Shown piece after piece: positions 8,737 to 44,778 of a DNA stretch of 55,527 nucleotides. Under the pieces are notes generated by a model. That model saw only the letters and a program-made list of their open reading frames with translations. It was not told where the DNA came from and made no database searches. Origin of the DNA: a virus (taxonomy: Duplodnaviria > Caudoviricetes); IMG/VR virus record IMGVR_UViG_3300032163_000018, positions 1 through 55,527 of that record; one strand, written 5' to 3'. The number at the start of each line of letters is the position of its first letter. Position 1 is the stretch's first letter. The translations under genes were made by a program, and so were the position numbers.

Positions 8737-8937
8737 TTAAGCAGCTTTTTTCATAGAAACGGTGTCATTTTCTGACACTTTTTTACTCAACTCAGATTTG
8801 AGTTGAGTAACCTTGGACATTTGAAGTAACCTATCTGCTTCAAAAATATAGGTCTTCCAAGAGCTTATGTTATTTTCCTTAAGAACCTGAGCCAACATAA
8901 GATATGTTCTAAATTGATCTAAACATATATTTTTCAC
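8737..8937 (-). CDS. Hypothetical protein ending in KKAA
   Basis: GTG start after an AGGAGA RBS and a TGTGGTATAAT extended -10. Confidence 0.55.
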   Translation of the reverse strand: MKNICLDQFRTYLMLAQVLKENNISSWKTYIFEADRLLQMSKVTQLKSELSKKVSENDTVSMKKAA

Positions 8938-10358: not shown

Positions 10359-10666
10359 GTATTAGTATTTGTATTAATAGTTATATTAATGTTAATATTG
10401 GTATTTATATTCGTCTGGAATCCAACTTTAACTTCTTTTTTAAATCTAAATCCTAAAACCAAATCCAAAAACCTTAATTCTGAGGAATACTTTTCTTACT
10501 TGAAAAGAACATTCGTGAGACATTCAAGTGACGCCGCTTTTTTAACCGCTTAAAAAATAAAGATAAGGAAAATTGAAAAGAGCTTTTTCTTTCTTTTTTG
10601 TTTTCCCTATCTTTATTGTAGCTCAATTTGAACCTAGCTTATGGTTGTTTTGAACCTAGTGCATGG
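10359..10666. repeat. Non-coding repeat cluster (hexamer array, inverted repeat, 22-bp-spaced direct repeat)
   Basis: Nine GTATTA-like hexamers at 10359-10412. Inverted repeat 10557-10572/10601-10616 (15/16 match). TTTGAACCTAG at 10627 and 10649. Confidence 0.6.
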
Positions 10667-14339: not shown

Positions 14340-16258
14340 TGTCTGATTCACCATTTACACAATCAATTAGAAAAAACACAGAAGATTCGCATCAAGCGAG
14401 TCCGGCATATGTTATTACTTTTGTTAGATGGGCAAATAGAGATCCGGTAAATTATCAAGATCCACAAAACCCAAACACAGACCCAACACAACAAGTTAGA
14501 GAACCCTTAGTTGTTATAAACGATTGTATCAGTTTAAACGCAGGTAATTCTAAATCAGGATTAAGTTCTAGTTGTACAGCAACTTTGTTAGCTGGTGAGA
14601 TTAATTATTCTACCGCCGTTCATCCGGGCGATTACATGATAGTTAATATGTTAAACTATGAATCAGATGCGGTTAAGGTAGCTCAAAAAGCTTTAGCACA
14701 ACATCCGATAAATAAATACGAAGATGGCTTTAAGGGTGTCTATAAGATACAGAAAGTTAGAAGACGTTTAGTCGTTAATCCAGAGAGCGGCGTTAAACAG
14801 GTAGCTTATACTGTTCACGCTTTTGGCTTTACAGAGTTAAACACTGTAATATATTACAATCCAGCCATATCTGAAAAATTTGCTAATTCTGATGTTCTAT
14901 TTATAGCACAGTTTGCTGATTTTTGGAATCAATTCGCTACTTCTAAAGATAACACTAGGAAAGTACAAATAGTGTTGAAATACTTAATTCAGGCTATATT
15001 AGGCAAAGGAATAAATAGAAACGATTTTACTATTCCAGCTACGCAAAATAATCAATTCATAATTCCTCAATTGTTAGGTAAATTACTTAACCGACCAATA
15101 TCTAAAGTTGCTACTGATATTTACAATTTCTATTTTGGTATATGGAGTTTGGCAACCGGATCTACAAACGAAACCCCAGGACAAAACTTTAACAGTATGT
15201 TTGAACAGTGGGATCAAGATAGTAATTTTTACAGAGTTAAGGGCAATAGAGAAATGCAAGGATGGCGTTTATTAGCTGCTGAGAATTGGAACTTTAAGCA
15301 GATATGGTCTATATTAAGTTCTTACCTTAACGGTGCGATAAATGAAATGTACACAACTTATAGAGTTGGTCCTGACAATTTTGTTTATCCATCTATAATA
15401 GCCAGACAAAAGCCTTTTAGCTCGGATCACTTTTTAAATCCAAATAGAATTAATAACGTAGATAATTTACCAGCAGTTAACACAACTCATACTAAATTTT
15501 CTTCTTTACCTAGATGGAGGATTTCTCCTGATTTATTGTATGATATTGACTTAGGTAAAGACGAAGCATCTAGAGTTAATTTTGTACAAGTTTTTGGTCG
15601 CAGTATAGCGGCTTCTGATCAAGAGAATCAAGCATCTCAGATAGGGCTTGGTAACTTTTTCTTTAATCCTATAGACGTTAAAAGACACGGATTAAAACCT
15701 TCAGTTATAACAACTGAGTTTGATTTCCCTGGCGGAACTGGTGAAAACGTCAAACAATCAAGAGCTTGGGCTTACTTGTTGTTTGATATGATGTATGCTG
15801 GAGAGTTAAGAGAATCTGGGACTTTAACTTTTTACGGGATACAAGATCCTATTTCTGTTGGCGATAATATAGAATTTGACAATAACATATATCACATAGA
15901 ATCAATAAACCATATATTTCAAATAGCACCAGACGGCAAGAAGTTTTTTAGAACTTCATTAACTTTATCTTTTGGCACTAGTCTTGATAGTGATGATACG
16001 GCTCCTGTTTATCCTCAAATGGAAAACACATTTGCAGACAACGAAAGAGCTGATGATTACACTAACGAAAGAATATTGCCAGGGAATTCAGACACTCAAG
16101 ATATTCCATATGATTCTACTAGAAAATATGGTGAAAAAATTAGAGACGGTGTTGATAAATCGTTTACGTTGGATGAAAACGTTAAGCCTAGAATTTCTAG
16201 TATAGAATATCAAGATGACGGAAGCAGCGATAATAAGAAAAAGAAAGGTAAGAAGTAA
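14339..16258 (+). CDS. Baseplate hub protein (gp27/gpD-like)
   Basis: Follows the tape measure. C-terminal GTLTFYGIQDPISVGDNIEFDNNIYHIESINH..T.L.L motif. Confidence 0.7.
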   Translation: MSDSPFTQSIRKNTEDSHQASPAYVITFVRWANRDPVNYQDPQNPNTDPTQQVREPLVVINDCISLNAGNSKSGLSSSCTATLLAGEINYSTAVHPGDYMIVNMLNYESDAVKVAQKALAQHPINKYEDGFKGVYKIQKVRRRLVVNPESGVKQVAYTVHAFGFTELNTVIYYNPAISEKFANSDVLFIAQFADFWNQFATSKDNTRKVQIVLKYLIQAILGKGINRNDFTIPATQNNQFIIPQLLGKLLNRPISKVATDIYNFYFGIWSLATGSTNETPGQNFNSMFEQWDQDSNFYRVKGNREMQGWRLLAAENWNFKQIWSILSSYLNGAINEMYTTYRVGPDNFVYPSIIARQKPFSSDHFLNPNRINNVDNLPAVNTTHTKFSSLPRWRISPDLLYDIDLGKDEASRVNFVQVFGRSIAASDQENQASQIGLGNFFFNPIDVKRHGLKPSVITTEFDFPGGTGENVKQSRAWAYLLFDMMYAGELRESGTLTFYGIQDPISVGDNIEFDNNIYHIESINHIFQIAPDGKKFFRTSLTLSFGTSLDSDDTAPVYPQMENTFADNERADDYTNERILPGNSDTQDIPYDSTRKYGEKIRDGVDKSFTLDENVKPRISSIEYQDDGSSDNKKKKGKK

Positions 16259-17310
16259 TGTTTGATAACGACGATTATAATCCAATACTGCCTTCTTCTT
16301 TGTTAGCCTTCGATCATGACGGAGTTACAGATGCTTATAAAAATTCTAAGAGTAATTTCTCACTAAAAACTGGCGTTATAATAAAGAGTTATGATATAAA
16401 CGATTCTCAAAACGTTTCAGGCGTTGCGGTTGAGTATGACGTTCTAACTATTGATCAGAGTAGAGATCATGGAACTTCTGGAGTTATATATAAGAAATGT
16501 CTCTCTGTTGATGGTTTTGGTGGACTCTCCGACTTTATGGAAGCAAAACTAAGACCTGCGTCTGATAAGAAAGTCATAAAAGACGCAGAAATAGGCAATA
16601 GTGATGGCGCAATAGTTATGCTTCTATGTATCAACGGAATAGAGGATAGAGGCGTTATAATAGGCTCACTAAAGCATCCAGGCAGAAAAACAAGATTAGA
16701 TAAGGAAGCTGGACTTCACCTTGAGGGAGAGTATAACGGCTTAAATTGGAAGATAGACAAAGATGGTGCGTTAGCGGTTACTTTTAGATCTGCTACAGAT
16801 TCTAAGGGTAAGGCTTCTGATGAGAAATCGGGTGGATCTAATTTTAAGATAGAGAAAGACGGATCTATAGAATTAAACGATAATAACAAAGAAAAGATAA
16901 GAATTGATAAAACTAATAAAACAGTTACTATAAATGCTGAGAAAGATATATCAAACACTACAGAGGGTAACTTTAACGTAACTGCTAAACAATCAACGAA
17001 TGTAACGACTACAAAAGATATATTAATGGCAGCATCAGGTAATTGTAAACTTACTAGTCAGGGAGATTTTACTGTTGAAGCACAGGCGTCAGGCAACTTA
17101 AAAGCTAGTTCTTGGAACATTAAGGCTGATGATTTTATTGAAGCCAGAGCTGGAAGTATTAGATTAAGTTCATCTCAAGTAATGGTCGGACAAGGTGGAA
17201 CACCAGCGGTTATAAACTCAACGCAAGTTCTTACGTTTGTTCCTCCTGGAATTCCTTCTATTGGGATTATGATTGGACCTTTTAGCGGATCTGTTTTTAT
17301 TGCTTCATAA
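16258..17310 (+). CDS. Baseplate central spike protein (gp5/gpV-like)
   Basis: OB-fold-like N-terminus (VMLLCING...VIIG), then beta-helix repeats (IRIDK, VTINAEKDI). Confidence 0.75.
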   Translation: MFDNDDYNPILPSSLLAFDHDGVTDAYKNSKSNFSLKTGVIIKSYDINDSQNVSGVAVEYDVLTIDQSRDHGTSGVIYKKCLSVDGFGGLSDFMEAKLRPASDKKVIKDAEIGNSDGAIVMLLCINGIEDRGVIIGSLKHPGRKTRLDKEAGLHLEGEYNGLNWKIDKDGALAVTFRSATDSKGKASDEKSGGSNFKIEKDGSIELNDNNKEKIRIDKTNKTVTINAEKDISNTTEGNFNVTAKQSTNVTTTKDILMAASGNCKLTSQGDFTVEAQASGNLKASSWNIKADDFIEARAGSIRLSSSQVMVGQGGTPAVINSTQVLTFVPPGIPSIGIMIGPFSGSVFIAS

Positions 17311-17382
17311 TAGATTGTCATTATATTCCACCCACATAAATATATGTTTTTCTAATAAATGTAGGATATCTAATTACACAAT

Positions 17383-17454
17383 AAAATGCGAGATAAATAG
17401 GTCATCTATGGTCCCTCGCAGCTTTCCGCCCAGAGTTAAAACCTAACGGTGCGC
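17383..17454 (-). ncRNA. Candidate ~70-nt two-hairpin small RNA
   Basis: Has its own promoter at 17461-17489. About 50% GC. TGCGAG/CTCGCA stem followed by TTTT. No ORF. Confidence 0.5.
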
Positions 17455-17460
17455 AAATTA

Positions 17461-17489
17461 AGTATATCACACATTAAAATAAAAGTAAA
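17461..17489 (-). promoter_or_regulatory. Sigma70 promoter
   Basis: TTTACT-17 bp-TATACT with TG extension. TGTGATATACT is shared with the 19830 promoter. Confidence 0.65.
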
Positions 17490-17510
17490 ATAAAGCAGGC
17501 TTTCCACCCG
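17484..17510 (-). terminator. Intrinsic terminator
   Basis: GCGGG-TGGAAAG-CCTGC followed by TTTATTTTACTTTT. Confidence 0.55.
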
Positions 17511-17652
17511 CATCGCTGGTTTGTCGGCTCTATAAACGTAGCCGCACCGTCTTTTAAGCTGTTTTACAGCACCATTACTGGCAAGTTTCCACAGACTATT
17601 GACTACATGGCATGACATAGAGGATTGGCGTGATAACCTTAGCCATGTAACC
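17491..17652 (-). ncRNA. Candidate multi-stem structured RNA
   Basis: 76 of 162 bases are G/C. 11-bp stem GGTTACATGGC/GCCATGTAGTC, GCCA-GTAA-TGGT, GCTGT/ACAGC and CGGCT/AGCCG stems. Confidence 0.5.
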
Positions 17653-18006
17653 TCATTTTATGTATTCACTTATTCCAACTAATCTACCATAACACCTAGT
17701 TGAGCATAATGGATAATTACCAGCAAATTGAACGTCTTCCTCTTTCATTTCCTTACCACACTCTTCACAATAAACAATACCATCAAATTCTACATATTCA
17801 CCAGTAATTCCTCCTGAAGGAAACTGTTTAGCTGTTGGATCAATTATATCACCATTTTTATTAACTGTCCACCAATGCCCTTGTTCACCCCAAAAAGGAC
17901 AATAATAAAATCCTCTAACAAGTCTTAAGGTAGGATCATTCTTAACAAGTTCTTCGCTCATTTCCTTACACTTGCCACGATATTTCATATAGTTAGATTG
18001 AGTCAT
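17653..18006 (-). CDS. Transglutaminase/papain-like fold protein with C-terminal Zn ribbon
   Basis: Cys (GKC)...GHWW...IIDPT triad pattern, then CEECG...CSTRC. Confidence 0.5.
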   Translation of the reverse strand: MTQSNYMKYRGKCKEMSEELVKNDPTLRLVRGFYYCPFWGEQGHWWTVNKNGDIIDPTAKQFPSGGITGEYVEFDGIVYCEECGKEMKEEDVQFAGNYPLCSTRCYGRLVGISEYIK

Positions 18007-18008
18007 AG

Positions 18009-18221
18009 TTAATTCTTCTCTAAAGCTTTTTCTAATGTTTTCATAGCTTCGTTCACACCATACAGGGACTCATGAAGATTCTTTATAACTAGATGATGAT
18101 TGCTACTTTGGTTTACTCTTAAGATCCTAGCATAAACATCCATAAGTTCTTTAAGTTCTTCTTTGTCTTTTTCCTTTTCTTTGTCTTTTTCCTTTTCTTT
18201 GTCTGTTAAGTGTAGACTCAT
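18009..18221 (-). CDS. Hypothetical protein with DKEKEK duplication
   Basis: 70 aa; 18-bp tandem duplication. Confidence 0.5.
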   Translation of the reverse strand: MSLHLTDKEKEKDKEKEKDKEELKELMDVYARILRVNQSSNHHLVIKNLHESLYGVNEAMKTLEKALEKN

Positions 18222-18628
18222 TTTTTTTCCATATATCTATATTGTGTGGTTCTAGCATAATATTTGTCGTCTTTTTGAAAGAATGAATTTTGTGAGCTAA
18301 AATAATTATTAACACTCCAGCCCGGCTCAGCAGCCAATGAAGCATACTTTAAAGCATCTATTATTCGTTGTTCGCCATAGTTAGATTTTGGCATTTCAAA
18401 CACTAACTCTTTTTGCTCTTTAATCTTACCAACATTATCTAATCCTCTTATTTCAAATTCTATTGGTATGCAGGCTTGACCTGTGATTGCCCTAGTGAAA
18501 TCTTCTAAAGATAAACTAAGTTCTAAAAATTTGATATCAGAATTTTCATCTTGTATTTCAATATTCATTCTAGAAACGCCATAACAGATAGGTTTGCTTA
18601 TTGAAATATTTCCCTCAAGTTTTTTCAT
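18218..18628 (-). CDS. Hypothetical phage protein
   Basis: 136 aa, AGGAGA RBS. Confidence 0.7.
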   Translation of the reverse strand: MKKLEGNISISKPICYGVSRMNIEIQDENSDIKFLELSLSLEDFTRAITGQACIPIEFEIRGLDNVGKIKEQKELVFEMPKSNYGEQRIIDALKYASLAAEPGWSVNNYFSSQNSFFQKDDKYYARTTQYRYMEKK

Positions 18629-18638
18629 AACATTTCTC

Positions 18639-19361
18639 CTAGTTACAGTTAATCGTTCTTTTAGAAACGATAGTGTTATTGTTAACTAATATAGCACCTG
18701 AGTAAACAGTTATAGTAAACTTAATATTACCAGAACTTACTAATTGCAGTCTAATATCTGTTCTTCTAGATCCAGTTAGCAATGTACCGCCATTATCTAA
18801 TAGATTCTGAGCCGCTGCATAAGTGTAATTTCTAGGGTTTAAGATCACATCGCCATTTTGTACCAATAAATCTACATCTGTGATAGATAGATGGGTTGTT
18901 AAAGAATTATCATAGTTGTTAACAGAAGTAAGGAACTGTCCAGAACTGTCAAAGCTAACTCTCCCAGCGTGATCAACTAATAACTCAACCTGACCGCCGT
19001 TATCACATCGCCAGAATCCTTCCAGGCTTTGTGGAGTTTCTACTGTGGTAGGTCTATCAACGTATTGAACGTCTGTTTTGTTACAAGCCATAAGAAACGC
19101 CGCTAAGAACAATATAATCAATTTCATCAATTTCATCAATTTCATATATTCTCCTATTGTGTTTTGTCTTTTTTTAGACAAAACAAGTCCGTTATCTTTG
19201 ATAAATGATAGTAATTCATCGGAAAAATCTTCTGATACATATATTTCGCCTTGATATCCAGCGGTAATTAAGTCATAATCGTTTTCAAGACCAAATATAC
19301 CTTGAGATCTATCTTTCATAAACTCATCAATTATTTTTAGAAATTTTTCTTCAGCAGTCAT
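18639..19361 (-). CDS. Lipoprotein (internal start near 19146) fused in frame to an upstream 72-aa ORF
   Basis: Internal AGGAGA RBS, then MKLMKLMKLIILFLAAFLMAC lipobox. A separate RBS precedes 19361. Confidence 0.6.
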   Translation of the reverse strand: MTAEEKFLKIIDEFMKDRSQGIFGLENDYDLITAGYQGEIYVSEDFSDELLSFIKDNGLVLSKKRQNTIGEYMKLMKLMKLIILFLAAFLMACNKTDVQYVDRPTTVETPQSLEGFWRCDNGGQVELLVDHAGRVSFDSSGQFLTSVNNYDNSLTTHLSITDVDLLVQNGDVILNPRNYTYAAAQNLLDNGGTLLTGSRRTDIRLQLVSSGNIKFTITVYSGAILVNNNTIVSKRTINCN

Positions 19362-19371
19362 TTTATCCTCC

Positions 19372-19668
19372 TTATTTTAACTCAATTGTTACGGTTCCTT
19401 TTCTAAAATCACTACTATTGATAGTTCCGTCTAATTCTCTCTTTTCTTCTATAGTCATTCTTGTCCACTTTGAAATATATCCAGCATCTTTATGAATACC
19501 GATAGGATATTTTCTTTCCATTTCTCCTACAGTGTAACCATTGTCTCTCGCCCAATTCATAGCATCATAATAGGCAGAAAAGGTTGTATTGTTGCCTGTA
19601 AATATGATCTTTTTGTCTTCTATCGTAACGTCGCCTACATAGAACCCTACTTTTCTTGAATTATTCAT
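19372..19668 (-). CDS. Hypothetical phage protein
   Basis: 98 aa, GGAG RBS. Confidence 0.7.
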   Translation of the reverse strand: MNNSRKVGFYVGDVTIEDKKIIFTGNNTTFSAYYDAMNWARDNGYTVGEMERKYPIGIHKDAGYISKWTRMTIEEKRELDGTINSSDFRKGTVTIELK

Positions 19669-19813: not shown

Positions 19814-19831
19814 ATATTCTCCTAAAATCAG

Positions 19832-19871
19832 TATATCACATCCAAAAATAATGTCAACTTCAACAAAATGT
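19832..19871 (-). promoter_or_regulatory. Sigma70 promoter, copy 1 of a 40-bp direct repeat
   Basis: TTGACA-16 bp-TATACT with TG extension; 40 bp identical to 20587-20626. Confidence 0.8.
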
Positions 19872-20544: not shown

Positions 20545-20586
20545 AAACATCCTCCTTTGTCTAATCAAACAATCCTATTTCATAAT

Positions 20587-20626
20587 TATATCACATCCAA
20601 AAATAATGTCAACTTCAACAAAATGT
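20587..20626 (-). promoter_or_regulatory. Sigma70 promoter, copy 2 of the 40-bp direct repeat
   Basis: TTGACA-16 bp-TATAAT with TG extension. Confidence 0.8.
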
Positions 20627-21400: not shown

Positions 21401-21955
21401 ATGCTTAATAAAATTGTAGAACTGCTAATCGCTTTTATGCCCCTAATCCTATCCTTTGTCTTTATAGGTATAGCTTACGTTAAGAATAAAAACTTAATGA
21501 GAATAGACTGGGCAACTGTTAAGAAAGTAACTTTAATAGTTTTATTAGCTAAACTAGTGAATATAGGCATAATAGATCTACAAGTACATCTGGGGTTAGT
21601 TAGTAAGATCCAATTATTGGAAGGCACTCAGATGCCAATGCCGTTTTGGTGGTTTTTCATGGTCTTTTGGGAAGACGGGTTTTATGGCTTAGTTATCTAT
21701 TATTTAATGGAAGTTGATAAAATATTGCCTAAGTTTGTTAAAAAAATCATTATATTTGGTATTTGCTTTAACTTTATGTTAGGACATTTGTATCAAGGAG
21801 CTATAGGAATGTTGGCAATCCTGTATCCTTTTTATATTAGTTATAAATACGGTAAAAAGAACGGATTCGGTACTGTAATGATTTGTCATATTTTGTTTGA
21901 CTTAATAAGTTACATGATGTATAGTTTCTATGTGAAGGTAATTTTATGGGGATAA
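21401..21955 (+). CDS. CPBP (CAAX/Abi family) intramembrane glutamic protease
   Basis: Multiple TM helices; WED..., F..GH and H...D motifs. Confidence 0.75.
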   Translation: MLNKIVELLIAFMPLILSFVFIGIAYVKNKNLMRIDWATVKKVTLIVLLAKLVNIGIIDLQVHLGLVSKIQLLEGTQMPMPFWWFFMVFWEDGFYGLVIYYLMEVDKILPKFVKKIIIFGICFNFMLGHLYQGAIGMLAILYPFYISYKYGKKNGFGTVMICHILFDLISYMMYSFYVKVILWG

Positions 21956-25994: not shown

Positions 25995-26009
25995 ACAGAT
26001 TAATCCACA

Positions 26010-26085
26010 TGATTTGTGCCAGAAACAATCTAAAAAAGACAGTTACTGGCACAAATCACGTTTATAGCTCTAAAAAGGACAGTTA
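26010..26085. promoter_or_regulatory. Operator-like inverted and direct repeats
   Basis: Perfect 13-bp inverted repeat 26010-26022/26046-26058. 17-bp direct repeat (1 mismatch) at 26029 and 26069. Confidence 0.6.
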
Positions 26086-26107: not shown

Positions 26108-26136
26108 TTGACATAATATAAACTATGTGTTATACT
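26108..26136 (+). promoter_or_regulatory. Sigma70 promoter
   Basis: TTGACA-17 bp-TATACT with TG extension. Confidence 0.8.
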
Positions 26137-27250: not shown

Positions 27251-27454
27251 ATGAAAACCTACCTAACTCTAGGAATATTATTCTGGTTTCCGCTCACTTT
27301 TTGCAGATCCCACCTTTATAAGGATAAAAACTTTTTCGTCATACTAACTGACATCGCTCTCGGTGTGCTATCTTACCCATTAATTATATTGTATCTGTTG
27401 GTCTCTGTAATTAAGGGTTTAAGAAAGGGAAAAAATGAACATAAAGATACTTAA
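27251..27454 (+). CDS. Small membrane protein
   Basis: Two hydrophobic segments, GGAG RBS. Confidence 0.55.
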   Translation: MKTYLTLGILFWFPLTFCRSHLYKDKNFFVILTDIALGVLSYPLIILYLLVSVIKGLRKGKNEHKDT

Positions 27455-27956
27455 ACCCTTGCCGGAACATCTAATAACAGGAACATTTCCTTTTGGTTCT
27501 AGAGTCTACGGCAATCACATTGATGAGTCTGACTTTGACTTCCTTAAGATAGTTAATTTTGACACGGGTGAGGTTATTTTACAGTATAAAGATGGTGATA
27601 TTGATTATGTTTACACTGGCTTGAGAAGTTTTCTTAGGGATCTAGAAAAAGGTGCTAGTCAAATAAATTTTGAAGTGCTACATACAGAAGAGTTTCAGTC
27701 TAATTTTAAGATTGACCCTATAGTATTTTATACAGAAACAAATGCCAAAGCTTTTGTAGGTTTTGCTAGAAGAGATTTGGAATATCCTCAAAGAGTTTTT
27801 CATATAAATCGCTGTATTTACATAGCTGAAAAGATAATGAAAAAAGAGTTGATAAAGCTCGAAGATATTGGTAAGATAGTTATCGAGAACGATATGGAAA
27901 AATTGACAAATAGAGTTACAGAGCTTAGGAATATGTTGAGGCATGGAGGTAGATAG
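27435..27956 (+). CDS. Pol-beta superfamily nucleotidyltransferase
   Basis: FGSRVYG...SDFDF (GS..DxD motif). Confidence 0.8.
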   Translation: MNIKILKPLPEHLITGTFPFGSRVYGNHIDESDFDFLKIVNFDTGEVILQYKDGDIDYVYTGLRSFLRDLEKGASQINFEVLHTEEFQSNFKIDPIVFYTETNAKAFVGFARRDLEYPQRVFHINRCIYIAEKIMKKELIKLEDIGKIVIENDMEKLTNRVTELRNMLRHGGR

Positions 27957-28669: not shown

Positions 28670-29131
28670 ATGATTAGTAATAAATTTCTTTATGGAACAC
28701 ATGTAATAGATACAAGAGATAATATGACAGGAATAATCGTACCATCTAATTGGGTATGGGGTGAGAACTGTAGCACAGCAGAAGAATTTGATTATAGCCT
28801 TCAAACTTCAGATCTAACTGTTTATTATTATAATGAAAGAGACAAAACAGTTTATGCAATTCTCGAAAAATATGTTGCCGCCGATCCGATTTTTTCTTCC
28901 AGGTTAAAATATTCAACATATTTTTTTACTAATATTAATGATGAATTTAGAAATCATTCAAATTATGATCTCTTTCCTGATATGAGATACATGGCATATA
29001 GCTATGGGAGATTAAATAAAGAATTCATTAAGAATAAACAGAGTAAATGTCCTCATTTTAATAGAAAACCAATTTTATTACTAAATTCAGTAGTCTATAA
29101 CTGTGCAGACTGTGGAGAGGCTTTAGAGTGA
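28670..29131 (+). CDS. Hypothetical protein with C-terminal Zn-binding motif
   Basis: CPH...CADCG; GAGG RBS. Confidence 0.6.
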   Translation: MISNKFLYGTHVIDTRDNMTGIIVPSNWVWGENCSTAEEFDYSLQTSDLTVYYYNERDKTVYAILEKYVAADPIFSSRLKYSTYFFTNINDEFRNHSNYDLFPDMRYMAYSYGRLNKEFIKNKQSKCPHFNRKPILLLNSVVYNCADCGEALE

Positions 29132-43476: not shown

Positions 43477-44778
43477 ATGCCGTTTACACAAGACGAAAGA
43501 ATTGCATTATCTAAAAGGATCACAAAGATACCTACGGATATCGCTACAGCTAACGTAGTAAAAGATCAGCTTCAGGTTGAGAAAAATAAAGCTCAAAATC
43601 TTGATAATGCTCACTCCAGTTTAATATCTGATCTAAACTTTTATGTTCACGGCTATGGTGATGAATATTCTTTTATAGATGGGAATCAAAGAAGGCACGT
43701 ACTAGAACAGGATCAGATTGATGCCGTTAAGAAAGTTTTTAAAAATGGATTTTTCCCTAATGATCCCTTAGTAGCTCCTCCCGGGGTTCCAGATGGAGTT
43801 TGGAAGTTTTTTCCTCCATATAACGGAGCTTATGCCATAGGGAAAAAATACGACGGAACTTATACTATAATAGACGGAGAACAGCCTCTTTACGCTTCAA
43901 TAGCAAGCACTATAGCTACTATTGAAACTCATACTGACATTAATAGAGTAACTGGTCAGGTTTGTGCGTCGAATATTATATCTACTGATTCTGTTATCCA
44001 CGGACTTCTTGATGATCTTAAGGATTTGGTTCAAAGATACGAAGATACACTTAATTCAGAATATTCAGCGATAATAACAGATCCAGATTCTGGAAGAAAT
44101 ACACAGAACTTGGCAGCAAAAAATGATATAACGGTCAATATTTTACCAGCAATCAATACCTGGCAAGCCTATGTGGATTTTAATACAGCACACGGAGAGG
44201 TTACTTGTGTTGGTTTTAATGGTCACGATCCAAACTCTTTGGGGTCTACAAAACTCCGTGAGACGGAATTAGATGCCTTAAAAGCCGCTTTATTAGCTAG
44301 ACAGACCTTTTTATCTGTAACTAGGGTGCCTCAGTTAATCGTTAATTTGGGAACTCCAGGACAGAACTTAACTACTGGAGAGTTAGACGGAAGTGGATCT
44401 GGTTTCTTTGACAATAGGTTTAAGATATTCGATCTAAGATTAAACGTCATAGGCGGAAGTTTATCCAAAGTCATAGGGTTACAAGCCGGAATAGATACTC
44501 AAGATCAATTAATAGCAAATAGTGCGGCTGCACAAAACACTTATTCTACAATTATGTTAGCTGTAAGGTTTCGCTCTCCTTCGGTAGGAGTAAACATAGT
44601 GCATATTCTAGACTCTACTGGATTTTCTGTATCTGATGCTGTTTATATAGTTGCCGACGACCAGAGTGAAATACTAACCGTCATTACTGCTATTTCTGGA
44701 AATACAGTGACGTTGACAAACAATATACCGCAAAAATATACAAAAGAAAATTTTAGTAGAATCTATAAGGTCTTATAA
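43477..44778 (+). CDS. Probable virion structural protein
   Basis: 433 aa. C-terminal beta domain (DSTGFSVSDAVYI) like those in the baseplate proteins. AATCTTTA motif upstream. Confidence 0.5.
   Translation: MPFTQDERIALSKRITKIPTDIATANVVKDQLQVEKNKAQNLDNAHSSLISDLNFYVHGYGDEYSFIDGNQRRHVLEQDQIDAVKKVFKNGFFPNDPLVAPPGVPDGVWKFFPPYNGAYAIGKKYDGTYTIIDGEQPLYASIASTIATIETHTDINRVTGQVCASNIISTDSVIHGLLDDLKDLVQRYEDTLNSEYSAIITDPDSGRNTQNLAAKNDITVNILPAINTWQAYVDFNTAHGEVTCVGFNGHDPNSLGSTKLRETELDALKAALLARQTFLSVTRVPQLIVNLGTPGQNLTTGELDGSGSGFFDNRFKIFDLRLNVIGGSLSKVIGLQAGIDTQDQLIANSAAAQNTYSTIMLAVRFRSPSVGVNIVHILDSTGFSVSDAVYIVADDQSEILTVITAISGNTVTLTNNIPQKYTKENFSRIYKVL

Follow-up and report, generated by a model that had tools for sequence, protein, structure and literature searches.

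Phage morons are accessory transcription units that carry a promoter and a terminator of their own and are inserted between conserved structural genes. The other described systems that come closest to the locus studied here concern the ends of transcripts. Conserved intrinsic-terminator hairpins have been reported for phiKZ, and putative ncRNAs derived from untranslated regions for Pseudomonas phages (PMC10914365); NarS is a bacterial small RNA derived from a 3' UTR (PMC7038943).

We analysed a stretch on the minus strand of a viral record, positions 17491-17652 of what we call the window, that is, the whole 55,527-nt stretch of DNA under analysis (a 55.5-kb record with 33% GC and an estimated completeness of 35%). 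The stretch, hereafter the element, sits in a 342-nt spacer between two convergent genes. The original prediction had described it as a multi-stem RNA, either a 3'-derived ncRNA or a ribozyme-like element, forming a two-RNA locus with 17383-17454. The reading that we favour, with a probability of roughly 0.6, is that of a structured 3' UTR of the ordinary kind, which has an intrinsic terminator at its end, a mosaic joint at the seam of a gene cassette and a recurrent promoter after it.

When compared with the intrinsic terminators of phage operon ends, such as those of phiKZ (PMC10914365), the locus has in common a GC-rich hairpin followed by a T-rich run starting TTTAT, a position at a convergent junction and a compensatory change in the stem; it differs in that about 140 nt of further GC-rich, hairpin-forming UTR precede the hairpin. 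Moreover, the 55-kb window contains just one further copy of the hairpin motif, which is therefore not a genome-wide terminator consensus. As in morons, a leftward block of small genes with its own promoter-like sites and an end terminator, all signals read from sequence, is inserted between baseplate genes that are adjacent in several relatives, whereas the block, at about 4 kb, is made up of many genes and its transcription runs opposite to that of the structural genes. With 3'-UTR-derived small RNAs (NarS, PMC7038943, and the phage examples, PMC10914365) the element shares its position, with a stop codon on one side and on the other the operon's own terminator, from which mRNA and small RNA alike would take their 3' end; in contrast to them, it is known from DNA sequence alone, and its conservation is limited to one near-identical variant. 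Finally, the likeness to small self-cleaving ribozymes and other RNAs of Rfam 15 is confined to the general look, several short helices and a GNRA loop, and none of these families reaches its gathering score anywhere in the window (0 matches).

If the favoured reading is true, the value of the element is local. It would mark the 3' boundary of a mobile accessory cassette in the baseplate block, and it would provide a clean case of phage mosaicism in which a terminator-promoter joint acts as the seam and the stem of the terminator shows a compensatory change. A GC-rich core that proved to be a processed and conserved RNA would add a new family of phage ncRNAs, which is not likely on present data.

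Results and Discussion

An inserted cassette ends at the element

As its position directly after a stop codon in the original prediction implied, the element is the 3' UTR of a gene of 117 aa (17653-18006, minus strand, from the list of open reading frames). This gene is the last one of a leftward cassette that spans about 17.3 to 21.4 kb, the small genes of which run from 17653 to about 21175. The 117-aa protein is a member of a phage family with a wide distribution (204 proteins at E<=0.001, 55-68% identical, the 68%-identical relatives being P0002-P0008), and its C-terminal part is zinc-ribbon-like, with scores that lie below the Pfam cut-offs only. Matches naming a function are absent for every gene of the cassette. 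On the other side of the spacer lies a 350-aa gene (16258-17310, plus strand), which we call gpV-like on the basis of family matches below cut-off and the names of its homologues. Indeed, the weak matches are to baseplate hub and tail lysozyme families and to DUF2345, and some homologues are named 'phage gp45-like' or 'baseplate assembly protein gpV' in their sources. Its own entry aside, the protein has one relative at 90% identity (P0122), the rest being at most 53% identical.

In all 27 loci that carry a gpV-like homologue (27/27), the following ORFs are on the same strand. In L082, L083, L084, L090 and L105, a homologue of the window gene 21401-21955 begins 44-223 nt past the gpV-like stop; in the window, the leftward cassette separates these two genes. 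Two baseplate genes that are often adjacent in relatives are thus split here by a leftward block, which argues that the element is the 3' end of a moron-like accessory cassette, and by this comparison of gene order the cassette appears to be an accessory insertion within the baseplate gene block of this large, AT-rich phage. The 27 gpV-like loci have an upstream 639-aa gene in common with the window and do not have the spacer in common with it. The sequence that follows the 117-aa homologue varies from locus to locus among the 80 viral loci fetched, and none of the 80 carries other genes of the cassette. Single-protein searches of viral contigs returned no locus beyond the window's own, and six contigs of metagenome-assembled genomes with 117-aa homologues gave neither a hint of the host nor a match to the covariance model described below. 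A baseplate-J-like gene (43477-44778) lies a further 22 kb off, behind many small genes.

Anatomy of the element

Stem-loop 1 (17601-17652, minus strand) begins one base past the TGA of the 117-aa gene and consists of an 11-bp stem, 17652-17642 paired with 17611-17601 and including two G-U pairs, and a 30-nt loop. It is followed by a central stretch (17512-17600) of three short hairpins, namely GCCA-GTAA-TGGT with its GNRA loop (17582-17571), GCTGT-AAA-ACAGC (17570-17558) and CGGCT/AGCCG (17544-17525), together with an optional closing helix, GTCT/AGAC (17596-17593 with 17552-17549). The last hairpin of the element is the only terminator-like site found in 16800-18300. The scan places this candidate at 17485-17511 on the minus strand, as a 6-bp hairpin (17511-17495) with a GGAAA loop and then TTTATTTTAC; the six pairs, four G-C and two G-U, enclose the 5-nt loop and are followed by TTTATTTT. 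The hairpin has an energy of -9.1 kcal/mol and pair probabilities of 0.97-1.00, and it lies 142 nt past the stop of the 117-aa gene, the next gene being convergent. The original prediction was accurate in this inventory: the 11-bp stem, the three hairpins, a GC content of 47% and three copies of GYGGAAA are all present on the minus strand, and a terminator-like hairpin with a T tract does stand at the end.

A GC-rich hairpin with a U-rich tract, located after the last gene and with its stem kept in the one variant described below, has the features of an intrinsic terminator. According to the favoured reading, transcription from the 117-aa gene would stop at 17511-17495 and its U tract in a Rho-independent manner, and the same site would also shield the convergent gpV-like baseplate gene from leftward transcription. 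The 11-bp stem and the short GC-rich hairpins would then be ordinary 3'-end structure, forming a barrier to 3' exonucleases and contributing to insulation, and not a catalytic or tertiary-folded core. Two features fit this less well. First, 160 nt is more than one terminator needs. Second, the element is a GC island, within the top 2% of 120-nt windows of a record with 33% GC, which is unusual for non-coding DNA here; among such islands it is the sole one wholly outside ORFs of at least 90 aa, by comparison with the ORF list. This island of GC within non-coding DNA speaks instead for a regulatory or structured ncRNA of a new family, derived from the 3' UTR, which would be freed from the transcript of the operon, with the terminator at its end and an invariant centre as its core. 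We consider this possibility unlikely, for reasons that come from folding, from searches for relatives and from the variant.

Folding compared with shuffled sequence

The minimum free energy (MFE) computed for the 162-nt RNA, -43.6 kcal/mol, is close to that of 200 dinucleotide shuffles (-42.5 +/- 3.6; z = -0.31), 83 of which fold at least as well. The plus strand of the element gives z = +0.37, and sub-pieces of the spacer give values from -0.75 to -1.55, none of them significant, with -0.75 for the central stretch. The original prediction had seen far more structure here than a terminator needs and had named a folding energy no better than that of shuffles as the outcome that would speak against it; this is the outcome obtained, and it also argues against a new family of structured ncRNA. 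Stems of at least 10 bp are about as common in the window as in shuffled sequence: when a hairpin is required to have 10 pairs or more, no more than two of them G-U, and a loop of 3-40 nt, the whole window yields 89 and ten block shuffles yield 53-87, and about 40 of the 89, counted by hand, have at least 11 pairs. Longer inverted repeats, with 17, 16, 12 and 12 bp, stand at 10556-10617, 26007-26061, 8783-8810 and 27412-27461, in or at the edge of other intergenic regions. These four repeats, which are stronger than the 11-bp stem of the element, may be operators or terminators.

The individual hairpins deserve separate consideration. In isolation the three central hairpins have pair probabilities of 0.78-0.96, a point against an ordinary 3' UTR, and the GNRA hairpin, at 0.84-0.90 alone, is a point in favour of a structured ncRNA. 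However, with 150 nt of upstream mRNA, the pair probabilities of stem 1 and the GNRA hairpin drop to 0.04-0.22, stem 1 going from 0.42-0.84 in the element alone to 0.04-0.08 and the GTAA hairpin to about 0.2. As for the junction closed by GTCT/AGAC, the sequences that the original prediction had pointed out are there, but the helix is missing from the MFE structure and has a pair probability of 0.44-0.46, and the predicted structure as a whole lies 4.6 kcal/mol above the MFE.

At its top, stem 1 has the sequence GCUAAG/CAUGC (17638-17643 with 17610-17614, minus strand) and could be extended there through a UAA/AU internal loop. We take this loop to resemble the 11-nt receptor for GAAA tetraloops, and such a receptor-like loop adds to the case for a structured ncRNA. 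The 11-nt receptor contact consists of an internal loop of the CCUAAG/UAUGG type and a GAAA tetraloop within one RNA. A stable GAAA tetraloop is absent from the element: the terminator has a GGAAA pentaloop, and in the MFE fold the other GGAAA remains unpaired. On the basis of the loop, the GNRA hairpin, an unchanged 89-nt centre and two helices that change compatibly in the variant, one might model the element as a compact, tertiary-folded phage RNA of a new family that would arise from the 3' end of the cassette and travel with it between phages, a proposal that we hold to be quite unlikely.

Searches for relatives

The search for relatives bears on any conserved RNA. On the element itself, Rfam gave chance-level matches only when ranked by E-value, the best (E = 1.8-3.7) being to the model of an unstructured snoRNA. 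ARAGORN found no tRNA or tmRNA gene in the whole window, and among the 27 gpV-like loci it found one tRNA, distant from the equivalent site. A blastn search of GenBank phages with the spacer returned no match. In the 27 gpV-like loci and the 80 loci that carry a homologue of the 117-aa gene, blastn with a word size of 7 gave chance matches only, with a best E of 0.03. We also built a covariance model from the window sequence, entered twice, and the structure of the original prediction. This model matched only itself in 100 + 15 sources (114 related loci), and it had no match in 50 whole related viral records, taken by length and non-redundancy from the roughly 107 behind the loci.

Exact patterns gave the same picture. 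The central 25-mer was absent from viral contigs, the central 22-mer from metagenome contigs and from genome contigs of 185,579 species, and neither the terminator pattern nor the pattern of the second RNA occurred in viral contigs. The sole match to the stem pattern in metagenome contigs (L109) was rejected: the contig is bacterial, GC-rich and unrelated, and it terminates in an assembly palindrome. Thus, no relative of the proposed ncRNA appeared in 114 loci, 50 whole phage records or the exact-pattern scans of three collections. A blastn-short search for targets complementary to the element within the window gave noise, from which no site stood out, and this too weighs against a regulatory RNA. 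The ribozyme-like character suggested in the original prediction found no ribozyme or other Rfam family to match.

An independent variant of the spacer

The stretch is present in two DNA runs, X1 and X2. X1 may be the run from which the window derives. X2 comes from another study, and a 3375-nt contig from it matches 17463-19500. Seven substitutions, all transitions, were found in the 190 nt of the spacer covered by X2. In the terminator, two substitutions replace the C-G pair 17510/17496 by U-A, and the one at 17497 converts the G-U pair 17509/17497 into G-C. In stem 1, each of the two G-U pairs becomes a Watson-Crick pair through the substitutions at 17602 and 17603, and the remaining two, at 17623 and 17629, fall in the 30-nt loop. 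The stems of the two outer hairpins, 34 positions in all, therefore receive five of the seven substitutions (P = 0.0028), and every pair is preserved. Any transition at a G-U pair keeps the pairing; five stem changes would all be tolerated by chance with a probability of 0.09, and pairing-compatible changes from a single variant are weak evidence on their own. The variation in X2 nonetheless appears to follow base pairing on the minus strand and not the overlapping 60-aa ORF. This is in agreement with the strand chosen by the original prediction, as are the G-U pairs: all three wobble pairs of the window sequence are G-U on the minus-strand reading only.

The 60-aa ORF, part of a 73-codon stop-to-stop frame, was accordingly rejected as coding. 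A hand reading of its frame in X2 gives R>H, S>F, V>T, R>W and L>P, so that all five changed codons (5/5) are non-synonymous, and the 73-codon frame has no relatives among 1.84 billion representatives. The original prediction had allowed that conservation might follow this ORF rather than base pairing, and on both counts it does not. We also rejected an extension of the 117-aa gene into the 73-codon frame by a +1 frameshift, as unnecessary, the homologues ending nearby. Readthrough of the TGA of the 117-aa gene is likewise unnecessary; TGA ends 16 of the 50 predicted genes, and the homologues stop near the same place.

A further coding possibility concerns the first 51 nt of the element, which would encode a 16-residue peptide, with translation coupled to the termination of the 117-aa gene. 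This candidate mini-ORF (17646-17596, minus strand) is read from the sequence, overlaps stem-loop 1 and is in frame with the 117-aa gene, starting 6 nt past its stop. A GAGG stands 4 nt ahead of the ATG, and the genes at 28670 and 32523 show a similar distance; as the GAGG and the ATG both lie within the 5' arm of the 11-bp stem, they would be opened only by a ribosome finishing the upstream gene. In X2, by hand reading, the changes at 17629 and 17623 are synonymous and at third positions, and those at 17603 and 17602 jointly give S>N. However, this codon-position pattern is not significant (P = 0.11 for at least three of four at the third position), the two changes in the stem are equally well explained by base pairing, and sequence of this kind often contains short ORFs that have a GAGG by chance. 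A frame of 16 residues is, in addition, too short for searches for relatives. We regard this coding possibility as improbable.

The distribution of the changes is less easily accommodated. None of the seven falls in the central 89 nt, which gives P = 0.012 within the spacer with a split made post hoc. An unchanged centre between flanking stems that change compatibly is what a functional RNA core would show, and it sits awkwardly with an ordinary 3' UTR. Yet the adjoining genes differ from X2 at only 2 positions in 976 nt, so that an invariant core is to be expected anyway and is uninformative; the 117-aa gene has no substitution at all. The substitution density of the spacer exceeds that of the adjoining genes 18-fold (7/190 versus 2/976, Fisher P = 7e-5). 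Such an excess, which counts against the favoured reading, is not explained by plain neutral drift and points towards a special process at the hairpins or a recombination patch. It could reflect relaxed constraint together with selection on pairing, homogenisation of quasi-palindromes by template switching, or a recombination patch by the joint.

The excess also raises the possibility that the element is a feature of the DNA, namely quasi-palindromes where phage modules were joined by recombination and template switching made the arms alike, or a relic, namely the decayed remains of a gene or of foreign DNA. Some of the X2 changes affect neighbouring bases (17602/17603 and 17496/17497) and bring both inverted repeats closer to perfection, the similarity to X2 stops 22 nt past the T tract, a 73-codon frame spans the region from stop to stop, and the hairpin and T-rich stretch have a degenerate duplicate nearby. 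On the other hand, each of the three wobble pairs is a G-U when read as minus-strand RNA, which points to selection on RNA; the hairpin with its T tract has the standard form of a terminator; the open frame is without relatives; and genomes of 185,579 species contain no match to the 22-mer from the core. Altogether, we find an origin of this kind distinctly improbable, and an ordinary 3' UTR with a terminator remains the reading that we prefer.

Elsewhere in the X2 contig, the cassette is mostly near-identical to the window. The 240-aa gene (minus strand) differs at 10 positions within 27 nt (19036-19062) and at 4 positions within 13 nt (18813-18825), and these look like recombination or hypervariable patches. 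The 240-aa protein has a lipoprotein-like signal stretch, and its changes in X2 are not adenine-specific. A 70-aa gene with KEKEKD repeats (18159) is without 18 nt of the repeat in X2, in a part that codes for a run rich in lysine and glutamate; many unrelated contigs match this low-complexity stretch.

The joint and the promoter-like site

The likeness between the window and X2 ends at 17463, inside a promoter-like site. This site, found by a promoter scan at 17461-17489 (minus strand), consists of TTTACT, 17 nt and TATACT with a preceding TG. Before 17463 the X2 contig has 436 nt of unlike sequence, and X2 covers the window below this position with one 38-nt piece only. According to a hand-made reverse complement across the joint, including a 30-letter loose end, the -10 element becomes TATAAT in X2 and is followed by AAGGAG and an ATG. 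This suggests that a protein gene starts right after the terminator-promoter joint in X2, whereas in the window no ORF follows the site at 17461. We propose that the boundary between terminator and promoter is a mosaic joint, at which different phages would attach different downstream sequences, and that a recurrent extended -10 promoter stands directly past the terminator and was orphaned in the window phage. A 48-aa ORF at 17175-17321 (minus strand), which lies past this orphan promoter and has a GGTGGA-like ribosome site, is antisense to the gpV-like gene at the conserved 3' end of the latter and probably does not represent a gene.

The short stretch beyond the site, 17383-17454 on the minus strand, is the neighbouring 'sRNA' with which the element had been paired. 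By folding, it ends in a 7-bp hairpin and a T-rich run, and it has z = -1.55, with 15 of 200 shuffles folding as well. Since the likeness to X2 breaks at 17463 and other sequence follows, the two stretches are not linked there, and the proposed two-RNA locus is not a conserved unit. The motif said to connect the two RNAs fares no better. GYGGAAA occurs at 17592-17586, 17507-17501 and 17429-17423, with 10 copies in the window against 10.6 expected, and the longer GGGYGGAAAGC (17509-17499 and 17431-17421) occurs twice against 0.46 expected, a number reached in 7 of 100 shuffles. A small RNA that titrates CsrA or RsmA is not indicated either: the three GYGGAAA copies lie within 270 nt, and only the GGAAA of the terminator falls in a predicted loop. 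As no Rfam family was matched, there is no match of the CsrB or RsmY/Z type, the models of which we assume the library to include. Neither a CsrA-type sponge nor a conserved two-RNA locus is supported, and the same applies to a ribozyme-like core.

The two halves of the spacer align over GGGYGGAAAGC and over a T-rich stretch with a -10-like end. The T-rich alignment, starting at 17492 and 17399, scores 32 against 20.2 +/- 3.9, and 5 of 500 shuffles score as high. The shared GYGGAAA is better read as a degenerate local duplication of a terminator-promoter unit, a hairpin with a T-rich promoter stretch, than as a common protein-binding motif, and such a duplication would explain the resemblance without a common binding protein.

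The recurrence of the promoter-like sequence is seen in TGTGATATACT, which has an exact repeat at 19830 and repeats with one mismatch at 20585 and 26126, each of the three just upstream of a gene on the same strand. The extended -10 motif has four matches in the window against 1.5 expected, and 8 of 100 shuffles reach four. Written as TGTGATATA(C/A)T, this motif is found at 17461-17471, 19830-19840 and 20585-20595 on the minus strand and at 26126-26136 on the plus strand, a few tens of bases before gene starts, and the promoter-like site at 19857-19830 also carries a perfect TTGACA.
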